Shown here piece by piece: positions 6,321-17,153 of a stretch of 18,463 bases of DNA. A program made the position numbers and the translations under genes. Every line of letters starts with the position of its first letter. Within the stretch, counting starts at the first letter, position 1. The notes beneath the pieces were generated by a model that was not told the DNA's origin, searched no databases, and was given only the letters and a program-made list of their open reading frames with translations. The stretch comes from a virus (Duplodnaviria; Heunggongvirae; Uroviricota; Caudoviricetes), in IMG/VR virus record IMGVR_UViG_2703718769_000006; one strand, written 5' to 3'.

Positions 6321-6409
6321 TTTATATGTCCTTTTTTTAAGGCCTATGGTGCTGTTATATCTGGCATGAAACTGAATTGTCTGAATATCAAGTTGAGGGG
6401 TTAGAGTTC

Positions 6410-6670
6410 ATGTGCCATCTGGTCATTTTCGGCGCATTGCTTACTGCAATATTGCCGCTCTTCGGTTACGGGGATTGTGCCTTTCATAAAATGAAGATGA
6501 CTTTTAACGGATTTGGTTTGTTCGGTTTCCTTATTGCAGAGATGGTAGGCACATTTTATTTTTACATTTATCACCATGACTCCGCTTTTACAGGTAAACC
6601 ATCACGTCCGAGGAAGACTTTAATCATGCAATCGGTAATGCATGTTTTTGTCGTGAAGTTACGAATATAG
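6410..6670 (+). CDS. Putative small membrane protein with two hydrophobic helices
   Basis: ORF 6377..6670; an internal Met at 6410 ([20 protein letters not shown]…[21 protein letters not shown]) gives two hydrophobic segments. Plus strand, divergent from the 128-aa gene and overlapping the 3' end of the minus ORF 6571..6792. Confidence 0.3.
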
Positions 6671-6792
6671 AGTTTTCTCTTTTCAATATTGTTTGCTGAA
6701 GCGATATATGTCCGCCCTTCATGAAGAACATAATCGCCAGGTGTCACGCACTGACGTGGTATTTCATCAGTTCTGAAGTGATGAGCAATCAT
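6571..6792 (-). CDS. Hypothetical protein (about 73 aa)
   Basis: ORF 6571..6810; the Met at 6792 is preceded by GGAG with a 6-nt spacer. In the pL-operon orientation. Confidence 0.35.
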
Positions 6793-6965
6793 AATTATCT
6801 CCATTTTCACAAATGAACTTTGTTGATGCGGTGCCTGGTGCCTCCAGGTGACGTTAACCAGTTAACAATTAACGCCGGGTCAGGGGACGATGACTTTCCG
6901 TGACATCCTGTCGGTTTAACTGTTCCGCGTGCGCTGAGCCGCATTCACCGCATCACAAAATTCAC

Positions 6966-7011
6966 TTTAAAAAAGGGCGGATATCAGCCAGCAATTAAAC
7001 TGATATCCGCC
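6966..7011 (-). terminator. Strong rho-independent terminator, possibly the 3' end of a small RNA
   Basis: Perfect 12-bp inverted repeat GGCGGATATCAG…CTGATATCCGCC (6976-6987 / 7000-7011) followed on the minus strand by UUUUUU. Sits inside a 440-bp stretch with no minus-strand ORF (6811-7252). Confidence 0.55.
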
Positions 7012-7165
7012 AATGACTACACACAGCAATGTTGTTATTCACAACCGGAAGCGCACGGTCGAAGAAATCTAACGACAAGCCTTCAAAGGGAAAGAGTCTT
7101 CGCCGTGCGCTTTCGTGTTGCACCCTGGCTTTTCAGGGTAATATCTGTTCAGTAAACTGACAGTG

Positions 7166-7194
7166 CCGGATGCTCACCCGTGTCCGGCGCACGA
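7166..7194 (+). promoter_or_regulatory. Conserved leader element, copy A
   Basis: CCGGATGCTCACCCGTGTCCGGCGCACGA; 27 of 29 positions match the reverse complement of 15775-15803. It ends exactly 58 nt upstream of the ATG at 7253 and is followed by the hairpin CTCCAC-N7-GTGGAG. Confidence 0.5.
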
Positions 7195-7252
7195 ACTCCA
7201 CCTGACCCGTGGAGAACTCCTCAACTACAAACCCCGTAAGGAGAGTGAATTT

Positions 7253-7462
7253 ATGACACAAGAAGAAAAAGTGATGTTTCTGATGCGGCTGGCTGTCGAT
7301 ACCTACAACACACAATTCAGGGAGAAAGATATACCTCAAAAGGCAGTTCCTGCCGCGGTAGATAAGGGCGGTGCTATTGCCGTATTTTACGATGCATTTG
7401 AATCATTTTTTGATGAAAAACTCGATGCTGTTAGCGACTTCGGAACATCGAGTAATAAATAA
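7253..7462 (+). CDS. Small hypothetical protein A (69 aa), antisense to the pL operon
   Basis: Strong SD AAGGAGAG 7 nt before the ATG at 7253 (ORF track 7163..7462). Product MTQEEKVMFLMRLAVDTYNTQFREKD… Overlaps the 3' end of the convergent minus ORF by about 32 nt. Confidence 0.5.
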   Translation: MTQEEKVMFLMRLAVDTYNTQFREKDIPQKAVPAAVDKGGAIAVFYDAFESFFDEKLDAVSDFGTSSNK

Positions 7463-7790
7463 CGTTCATTACGGTTCTTAAACAACAATCAGTGGGCTTG
7501 ATGTTGTTCTTTTCAAGCTCACTTGCCATCACTTCCATTATTCTTGCGCTTACACGAATTATTTGGTGGCTGTAAGCGACGCAACTGTCGCTGATATTGC
7601 TGTTTATTTCTATTACTTCATTTTCACCATTAGCATCAACTTCGGATGCGCTGTTTTCATTATCCTGTTTCAGTGCTTTTTCTGCCATCTGGATGCGTGT
7701 CAGCGTTGCGGAATTTGGGCTAAGTCGATAAACCTGTTTGGCATCTTCCAGAAGCAGGGCGATAATGTGCTTCAGTTCTGTTTCGTTCAT
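7431..7790 (-). CDS. Hypothetical protein (about 119 aa)
   Basis: ORF 7431..7811; the Met at 7790 has GGAG 6 nt upstream. Lies 31 nt downstream of the 238-aa gene, suggesting an operon. Confidence 0.5.
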   Translation of the reverse strand: MNETELKHIIALLLEDAKQVYRLSPNSATLTRIQMAEKALKQDNENSASEVDANGENEVIEINSNISDSCVAYSHQIIRVSARIMEVMASELEKNNIKPTDCCLRTVMNVIYYSMFRSR

Positions 7791-16893: not shown

Positions 16894-16969
16894 ACTTATC
16901 CGGGATTATATTCTTCGCACGGTCGAGTTGGCCGTCGGGATTGGAACCCCGGATAGAGACCGCGACAAA

Positions 16970-16995
16970 CACACGCCGCGAGCGTGTTTTTTATT
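16970..16995 (+). terminator. Rho-independent terminator inside the leader upstream of the antirepressor gene
   Basis: ACACGC-CGCGA-GCGTGT followed by TTTTTTATT on the plus strand, about 75 nt downstream of the predicted plus-strand start site and 160 nt upstream of the ATG at 17154. Confidence 0.55.
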
Positions 16996-17153
16996 GTCGT
17001 ATGCACGCGCACATCTGAATTATGGTGGGGCGCATGGGGGAGCTGAAAAGCTCGCCGGTCGGTTTCCCGGTAGTTCCAACCCTGTGCGTCTCACCACCCG
17101 ATGATTGGAACCTTACGGTGGTGATAGTTTAGAAACCACTAGAGGGCGTCATT

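Follow-up and report, generated by a model that had tools for sequence, protein, structure and literature searches.

The DNA of the tailed-phage record IMGVR_UViG_2703718769_000006, 18,463 nucleotides (nt) in length and referred to here as the window, raises the question of what is encoded in a 440-base-pair (bp) stretch, 6811-7252, between the minus-strand genes for a 119-amino-acid (aa) and a 73-aa protein in its leftward early (pL) operon. The original prediction, made from the sequence without database searches, was that the stretch holds a candidate small RNA (sRNA). We conclude, with a probability of roughly 0.75, that it is the copy, in a Stx1c phage, of the intergenic DicF/KilS cassette known from lambdoid early-left operons, and that it includes a trans-acting predicted sRNA. 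Positions 6400-7700 of the window are 100% identical to Escherichia phage phiSTEC1589-Stx1c (PQ600364), a Stx1c phage. The sRNA gene and the parts of it that carry the argument are the following.

6969-7062, minus strand: KilS-type small RNA gene of approximately 94 nt, with the 5'-end set by homology to K-12 KilS.
6969-7011, minus strand: intrinsic terminator and putative Hfq-binding 3'-module (stem 7011-6976, then C, then U6 at 6974-6969).
7015-7031, minus strand: seed CAUUGCUGUGUGUAGUC, identical at 16 of 16 nt to the 3'-seed of RprA, with the core UGCUGUGUGUA shared with McaS.

The minus strand of 6811-7252 was found to align over its full length with the ydfC-dicF-dicB intergenic region of the Qin prophage of Escherichia coli K-12 and with phage Tritos, in which DicF is annotated. 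The mean column identity with Qin and Tritos is 86% outside of a replaced center. Approximately 220 nt of leader and approximately 170 nt downstream of the terminator are conserved with Qin, and the central ~130 nt of Qin, which comprises a long hairpin and the DicF seed, is replaced by ~30 nt in the window. The layout first proposed, a terminated or processed sRNA within an early operon as with DicF in Qin, is supported by this alignment of the whole 440 bp, and the counterpart in the Rac prophage is KilS. The RefSeq noncoding RNA kilS (b4833) is located directly upstream of kilR in K-12 Rac, which is the orthologous position. The identity to K-12 Rac is 80.8% over query positions 20-116 (K-12 strains), and the pairwise alignment with b4833 spans GTGCGC through the terminator and the 3'-flank.

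Homology to DicF could not be confirmed by eye in the original prediction, and a search of Rfam was recommended there. At gathering thresholds this search gave no match in the region, the only matches being near 17 kb (isrK at 16919-16992(+), 54.9 bits, and C4 antisense RNA at 17018-17101(+), 71 bits). Three families were matched in the region below threshold: DicF (RF00039) at 6975-7025(-) with 35.6 bits against a gathering score of 48 (E = 1e-05); RprA (RF00034) at 6966-7078(-) with 33.5 bits against 70 (E = 0.079), where only the 3'-seed region aligns well; and STnc100 (RF02076) at 6778-6985(-) with 30.8 bits against 47 (E = 0.00015). The K-12 KilS locus yields the same trio of sub-threshold matches, with a DicF score of 39.1 bits. 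Because the stretch aligns with the Qin cassette, is homologous to Rac kilS at the same spot, and shares this trio of matches, sequence comparison identifies the window element as a KilS orthologue within a DicF-type leader, and thus as a new copy of a known sRNA rather than DicF proper. The suspected relationship to DicF is therefore real at the level of the locus, as the Qin alignment and the Rfam match indicate, but the RNA itself is a KilS variant from which the DicF seed and the ftsZ-pairing loop are missing.

KilS was predicted from the ligation and sequencing of interacting RNAs (RIL-seq) and verified by northern blotting, where it was present in the wild type and absent in an hfq mutant (Bar et al. 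2021, PMC8175672). It accumulates in stationary phase, may have its own transcription start site, and has yncL as a RIL-seq partner (PMC8175672). The report of a discrete Hfq-dependent RNA of ~98 nt concerns K-12 KilS only (PMC8175672). KilS and DicF being known already, the RNA gene belongs to a known family, and the original finding is largely explained.

The strong minus-strand terminator with a U6 tract that had been described was confirmed, with an offset of a few bases. The stem at 7011-6976 (GGCGGATATCAGTT..GGCTGATATCCGCC) comprises 14 pairs (7 G-C) enclosing a loop of 8 nt, and the T6 tract occupies 6974-6969. The energy of the terminator hairpin was determined to be -23.3 kcal/mol. 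The 94-nt RNA, 7062-6969, folds to -35.5 kcal/mol, compared with a mean of -21.5 kcal/mol for dinucleotide shuffles (z = -4.49), and none of the 200 shuffles was as stable. The plan of the RNA is a 5'-stem region, a single-stranded seed, and the strong terminator hairpin with its U tail. The homologues retain a stable terminator stem through paired changes, which read GGCGGCAUCAG/CUGAUG(U)CCGCC in Rac and GGCGGUACCAG/CUGGUACCGCC in the K-12 prophage e14. These hairpins were compared by individual folds; insertions and deletions scramble the alignment, which precludes a rigorous count of covariation.

The seed, AUUGCUGUGUGUAGUC, matches 16 consecutive nt of E. coli RprA without a mismatch. The region, which is conserved in more than 120 phage contigs, has not arisen by chance. 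Of the 5,426 complete E. coli genomes, 1,841, including K-12 at Rac, have a match to 80% or more of the 116-nt query, and close matches to the window RNA are found in Stx-converting phages. Among 127 copies of the cassette, taken mostly from IMG/VR contigs together with a few additional fetched loci, 31 are of the short KilS type and represent 14 sequence variants. Across KilS-type variants, 13 of which carry four different terminator hairpins, that of DicF among them, the core of the seed hardly varies. The same seed with a GGCGG terminator is also present on a second scaffold, in e14 and in many Enterobacterales.

Several observations on these relatives can be added. The e14 element (L197 5193-5414(-)) lies inside the annotated "ymfH" coding sequence, an ORF (open reading frame) that may be spurious, in the early-left operon upstream of xisE/intE. 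It contains the RprA-type seed UAUGCUGUGUGUAGUC followed by the GGCGGUACCAG...CUGGUACCGCC terminator and a U tract. The STnc100 model aligns with it end to end (29.2 bits, below the gathering score), its 3'-end being the RprA-type seed plus terminator; DicF scores 28.5 bits. Of the 5,426 E. coli genomes, 1,830 contain a match that spans 80% or more of the query. A pattern scan of genome contigs (18 specified bases, 596 Gb, an estimated ~70 chance matches) gave 66 matches, roughly half of which were discarded as chance matches in GC-rich coding DNA of unrelated phyla. The seed and GGCGG module was found in Citrobacter, Serratia, Superficieibacter, Scandinavium, Enterobacter, Mixta, Erwinia, Raoultella, Pseudocitrobacter, Klebsiella, Izhakiella, and Pectobacterium (genome-contig loci L135, L136, L138, L141, L143, L151, L159, L168, L170, L175, L177, L178, L183, L186, L192, L193, and L194), and several of these modules are preceded by a GGAGGCACC-type hairpin like that of STnc100.

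Alternative seeds ahead of the same kind of terminator were found in IMG/VR loci L008, L067, L089, L112, L118, and L119; L010, L033, and L123; L096; L058; and L028. Examples are CAACAACCCAUGUUGAUUACCUUUUGG and CCAUGUGUAGUCUUUGG, the latter combining an upstream hairpin of the DicF type with a partial seed of the RprA type. Locus L058 contains UUGAUUGGU, which we take to be shared with OmrA/B. In L100 and L122 the KilS-type seed is joined to the terminator and loop of DicF, and L122, which carries the csgD-pairing seed, also has a predicted duplex with the ftsZ ribosome-binding site (RBS; -29.1 kcal/mol). The DicF seed is followed by kil in L044 and L046, and a third downstream gene (MLNVAIENQNG...) is found behind the same leader in L010, L038, L058, and L068.

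Duplexes between the window RNA and host mRNAs were scored in windows with background and shuffle controls; RNAduplex run on whole RNAs without constraints was dropped, as its duplexes were too long to be meaningful. The seed forms 16 contiguous predicted pairs with the csgD 5'-untranslated region (5'UTR) at -98..-83. With the 26-nt window seed, the energy of the csgD duplex was determined to be -27.2 kcal/mol, which is below all 490 of the background K-12 segments (minimum -26.3) and below all 200 shuffles (mean -14.8, standard deviation 2.8, minimum -23.7). The corresponding energies for the 3'-half of RprA, McaS, and DicF are -24.6, -31.2, and -9.9 kcal/mol, respectively. Net of opening energies, the csgD interaction amounts to approximately -16 kcal/mol, equal to that of RprA. 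At the start of dgcM (-2..+13), 15 contiguous pairs are predicted, at -22.3 kcal/mol versus -16.9 kcal/mol for RprA.

Binding of RprA has been reported for csgD, on both flanks of stem-loop SL1 (-83 to -28), and for ydaM/dgcM, immediately past the AUG; compensatory mutations confirmed the site in ydaM (PMC4152358). The predicted sites of the window RNA, upstream of SL1 in csgD and by the AUG in ydaM/dgcM, coincide with these published sites. Both yncL and csgD, as well as "ftsA", are among the RprA targets common to TRIC-seq and RIL-seq (10.1101/2025.09.11.675593). In the rpoS leader, nt 32-65 of RprA pair at -127..-93, and the window RNA does not pair there. The window-specific GUAGUCAUUG(G), 7016-7026(-), is also predicted to pair with CGAUGAUUAC in the ftsA-ftsZ spacer, at -46..-35 of the K-12 ftsZ 5'UTR, and when extended this duplex reaches -23.6 kcal/mol. 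The complementarity to host mRNAs was demonstrated for the window RNA, as were its homology to Qin dicF and Rac kilS, its fold, and the conservation of its seed across terminators.

Expression, Hfq binding, and regulation by the window RNA we infer from K-12 KilS and RprA, and the following course of events is proposed. Transcription starting at pL, or at a weak promoter belonging to the sRNA, would stop at the terminator and give an Hfq-bound sRNA, the 5'-end of which may be trimmed as in DicF and RprA. Polymerase modified by N would read through the terminator into kil, and in the read-through RNA, RNase III probably cuts a helix just past the terminator, as in Qin. The free sRNA would act in trans through the RprA/McaS seed, in the manner of the 3'-half of RprA. 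The most likely effect would be repression of csgD and dgcM, and thereby of curli and biofilm formation, together with pairing to yncL; neither the pairing of DicF with the ftsZ RBS nor the activation of rpoS by RprA would be involved. On this model, a prophage RNA probably switches off host regulators of curli and biofilm.

The remainder of the 440-bp stretch is made up of the following two features.

7063-7252, minus strand: structured leader ahead of the sRNA, with homology to the ydfC-dicF leader of Qin (Qin/Tritos alignment; 34 unique IMG/VR leaders).
6811-6968, minus strand: conserved kil 5'UTR (sub-threshold STnc100 match; RNAalifold on 12 homologues).

The leader contains several conserved small hairpins and the 5'-strand (7120-7100) of a long-range helix of ~20 bp predicted by RNAalifold, the 3'-strand of which (7062-7042) is the 5'-end of the sRNA. 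One pair of this helix is changed on both sides, A-U to G-C, when the window/Qin type (CGAAAGCGCA / UGCGCUUCCG) is compared with the Rac type (CGAAGGCGCA / UGCGCCUCCG); support for the helix is limited because it is almost invariant within the Qin-type set. We considered CCCUGAAAAGCCAGGG (about 7137-7122) as a boxB-like antitermination hairpin and rejected it, since by eye neither its stem nor its loop looks like that of lambda boxB.

The kil 5'UTR is closed by a 10-bp helix, 6955-6946 / 6833-6824, as predicted by RNAalifold from the 12 homologues. Depending on the phage, this leader is followed by dicB, kil, or a third gene. The GTTAAC dyad noted originally is present within a hairpin at 6876-6850, displaced by a few bases. 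The motif occurs twice, at 6866-6861 in the loop and at 6858-6853 in the 3'-arm of this 10-bp hairpin (6876-6867 / 6859-6850; loop GUUAACU), two pairs of which are changed on both sides in the Rac homologue. The CCTGG...CCAGG hairpin was likewise found, as CCUGG-AGGCA-CCAGG at 6848-6834. Both elements are part of the kil 5'UTR, downstream of the terminator, rather than of the sRNA. A GGAG Shine-Dalgarno sequence precedes the kil ATG at 6792. In Qin, the 53-nt form of DicF arises from intrinsic termination and a 72-nt form from RNase III, and RNase E also takes part in DicF biogenesis (PMC5069750). The closing helix 6955-6946 / 6833-6824 may be the RNase III site by analogy, because 53 nt plus 5 U plus 14 nt places the 3'-end of the 72-nt DicF on the first base of this helix.

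The cassette is located on the minus strand inside the pL operon, a placement that follows from the presence of N, cI, kil, gam, bet, exo, and an exonuclease VIII gene of the RecE family in the annotation of PQ600364 and in family scans. In order, the genes are cI, N, one for 238 aa, the 119-aa gene (7790-7431), then after the gap kil, a ydaE-like gene, one for 128 aa, the RecE-family exonuclease VIII gene, gam, bet, and exo. The two genes that flank the cassette most closely are the following.

6571-6792, minus strand: kil, a 73-aa KilR-type cell division inhibitor (phrog_294, "Kil protein for bacterial septation inhibition", E = 3e-35).
7253-7462, plus strand: a 69-aa gene (phrog_2605 over its full length, E = 1.5e-45; AAGGAG ribosome-binding site).

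The first gene past the terminator is kil, whose start lies 176 nt downstream of the U tract. Together with the ydaE-like gene, it is syntenic with kilR-ydaE of Rac, and the RecE-family exonuclease VIII gene follows as in Rac. In PQ600364, kil (window 6571-6810) is called "cell division protein FtsZ", which is a mis-annotation, Kil being an inhibitor of FtsZ. The ydaE-like gene (6401-6577) is called "Rtr1/RPAP2 family protein" there, a marginal Pfam match (33.4 bits against a cut-off of 33). The 69-aa gene is a real gene that was overlooked in the original prediction. It is divergent from the sRNA, occupies the position of sieB in Rac, and has 32 nt at its 3'-end in common with the end of the 119-aa gene; RefSeq annotates it in strain NCCP 13905, and it is unannotated in PQ600364. 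A second terminator-like hairpin at 8601-8580(-), with 9 pairs followed by TATTTTT, is found near the 3'-end of N and upstream of the 238-aa gene, and it could be a tL1-type terminator.

The claim that 6811-7252 is free of minus-strand ORFs holds in the sense that matters, and the ORF-free gap actually extends to 7430. Mechanical ORFs are present in it, of 45 aa (6807-6944), 42 aa (GTG start, 6995-7123), and 68 aa (TTG start, 7133-7339). The 45-aa ORF is the only one initiated by ATG, and it was rejected as coding since its length varies from 13 to 50 aa in homologues and its sequence diverges after residue 10. The features that had been described in 6811-7252 are real, with offsets of a few bases.

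An sRNA that acts in trans has to be weighed against simpler uses of the same DNA. The hairpin could be an N-suppressible, tL-type terminator only, which gates kil and the recombination genes and releases an unstable, functionless by-product. With its U6 tract it is a textbook intrinsic terminator between N and kil, and the hairpin at 8601-8580(-) is a second, terminator-like site. A sigma-70 promoter scan found none ahead of the sRNA, where only a weak TAGATT can be made out by eye, and the extended -10 of K-12, TGTTAAATT, reads CGTTAGATT in the window and so is not conserved; because of these two results, expression in a lysogen is uncertain. Weighing further against a trans-acting RNA, the seed is partly paired in the full-length fold, with an opening cost of 5.6 kcal/mol; target pairing was scored for a few chosen mRNAs; the dgcM and yncL energies are only in the top ~5-10% of background; and the target list of Bar et al. 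includes yncL but not csgD (PMC8175672). A bare terminator, however, does not account for the K-12 orthologue, a discrete RNA that builds up in an Hfq-dependent manner and is found in RIL-seq chimeras (PMC8175672). Neither does it require the 16-nt stretch 5' of the hairpin, which is nearly invariant despite exchanged hairpins and which recurs as the same seed on the scaffolds of e14, other Enterobacterales, RprA, and McaS. We consider a terminator with no further function to be unlikely, and a gating role is compatible with a KilS-type sRNA.

About equally improbable is that the whole 440 nt constitutes a cis-acting processing or regulatory leader for kil, with RNase III and RNase E sites and translational control, and that any role in trans is negligible. 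Such a leader is suggested by the two predicted long-range helices (7120-7100/7062-7042 and 6955-6946/6833-6824), by its retention ahead of three unrelated downstream genes, and by the RNase III processing documented in Qin (PMC5069750). It leaves unexplained the conservation of the seed and its identity with RprA/McaS, as well as the Hfq dependence and yncL chimeras of K-12 KilS (PMC8175672). Cis and trans roles are not exclusive and can coexist. The smallest likelihood is assigned to a genuine DicF that represses ftsZ translation and blocks division jointly with Kil, which we regard as very unlikely. The homology of the locus with Qin, the Rfam DicF match (E = 1e-05), the division inhibitor gene directly downstream, like dicB in Qin, and a weak predicted duplex with the ftsZ 5'UTR at -55..-23 (-23.6 kcal/mol) would all be in keeping with it. 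However, the Rfam score, 35.6 bits, does not reach the gathering score of 48, and the 5'-seed of DicF is absent. DicF pairs with the ftsZ RBS through a 3'-loop containing ACUCC (PMC5069750); we calculated -27.9 kcal/mol for DicF nt 24-53 with ftsZ -29..+1. No duplex of this type with the ftsZ RBS was found for the window RNA, whose best ftsZ site is elsewhere, and the window seed alone gives -17.4 kcal/mol on ftsZ, within the background range. The KilS-type sRNA in a DicF-type cassette is thus the reading that we favor.

A broader proposal can be advanced only tentatively, at somewhat less than even odds. The KilS-type RNAs of lambdoid prophages, including that of this Stx1c phage, would carry the RprA/McaS seed and hence repress host csgD and dgcM, and the DicF/KilS/STnc100 cassette would be a modular scaffold in which recombination swaps seeds, terminators, and downstream toxic genes independently, with host sRNA seeds copied in either direction. 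Literature searches found no paper joining "KilS" with "RprA" or with "Rac prophage"; a search on DicF, RprA, prophage, and seed returned no title indicating a KilS-RprA link; and one with the seed sequence returned nothing on prophage sRNAs. The Pas-sRNA preprint, a prophage survey, mentions STnc100 in the late (Q/holin) region only, without DicF, KilS, or RprA, and does not cover this locus. Because these searches showed no such link, the shared RprA/McaS seed and the modular swapping of seeds in the cassette are possibly new, and both stand as predictions.

A widespread prophage sRNA carries the exact seed that the host uses in RprA and McaS against csgD and dgcM. Should this seed function as predicted, lysogeny or induction would act directly on the control of curli and biofilm in Shiga-toxin-producing strains; this would also be a clear case in which phage and core-genome sRNAs have exchanged seeds. 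Variants in which the modules are mixed, with the KilS seed on the DicF terminator or the DicF seed before kil, make the logic of the seed testable.

Among the known systems, KilS is the closest. Both RNAs are encoded directly upstream of kil, with ~81% identity over 97 nt, an identical 16-nt seed, a terminator of the GGCGG...CCGCC type with a U tail, and a shared 3'-flank, AAAGUGAAUUUUGUGAUG.... The window RNA differs in having an upstream leader of the Qin/DicF type rather than the Rac type, in its first 6 nt (UCGACC versus GUGGGA), and in GUCAUUGG in place of GUCCUGG after the seed, which lengthens the dgcM match. Its terminator stem is perfect, an inserted A pairing with the U that is bulged in Rac and a C-G pair being changed to U-A, and the terminator loop is 8 nt versus about 20 nt in Rac. 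With DicF, the window shares a homologous cassette, a related terminator scaffold, a cell-division inhibitor gene downstream, and likely the mode of biogenesis, by termination and RNase processing. The DicF seed UUUCUGGUGACGUUUGG and the long hairpin, the presumed RNase III substrate, are replaced by ~30 nt in the window, which is without the ACUCC loop that pairs with the ftsZ RBS and scores below the Rfam gathering threshold.

The likeness to RprA, which belongs to the core genome and to the Rcs regulon, consists of the 16 of 16 seed identity within a looser similarity over ~35-40 nt (GUGAA.ACAAC..AUUGCUGUGUGUAGUC.UUG), the same predicted csgD and dgcM sites, and the partner yncL, which RprA has in common with KilS. 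The 5'-half and the two-hairpin architecture of RprA are absent from the window RNA, and the terminator and genomic locus differ, so that the window RNA in effect resembles only the 3'-half of RprA. The csgD-repressing sRNA McaS (IsrA) shares the core CUGCUGUGUGUA and the csgD site, and GUCUGGCGGAUGUC resembles GUC(AU)UGGCGGAUAUC. McaS has other 5'- and 3'-structures and a chromosomal gene, and homology is not established. The K-12 mcaS gene (L129 1159-1252(-)) adjoins dgcM and is ~6 kb from the left end of the Rac prophage; a common origin of McaS and KilS is conceivable. STnc100, finally, resembles the kil 5'UTR, of which 6778-6985(-) aligns with the leader and two hairpins of the model. In the window, the middle pair of the CCNGG hairpin is changed on both sides relative to the family consensus CCGGG/CCCGG, and the kil ribosome-binding site and ORF stand in place of the 3'-seed and terminator of the model.

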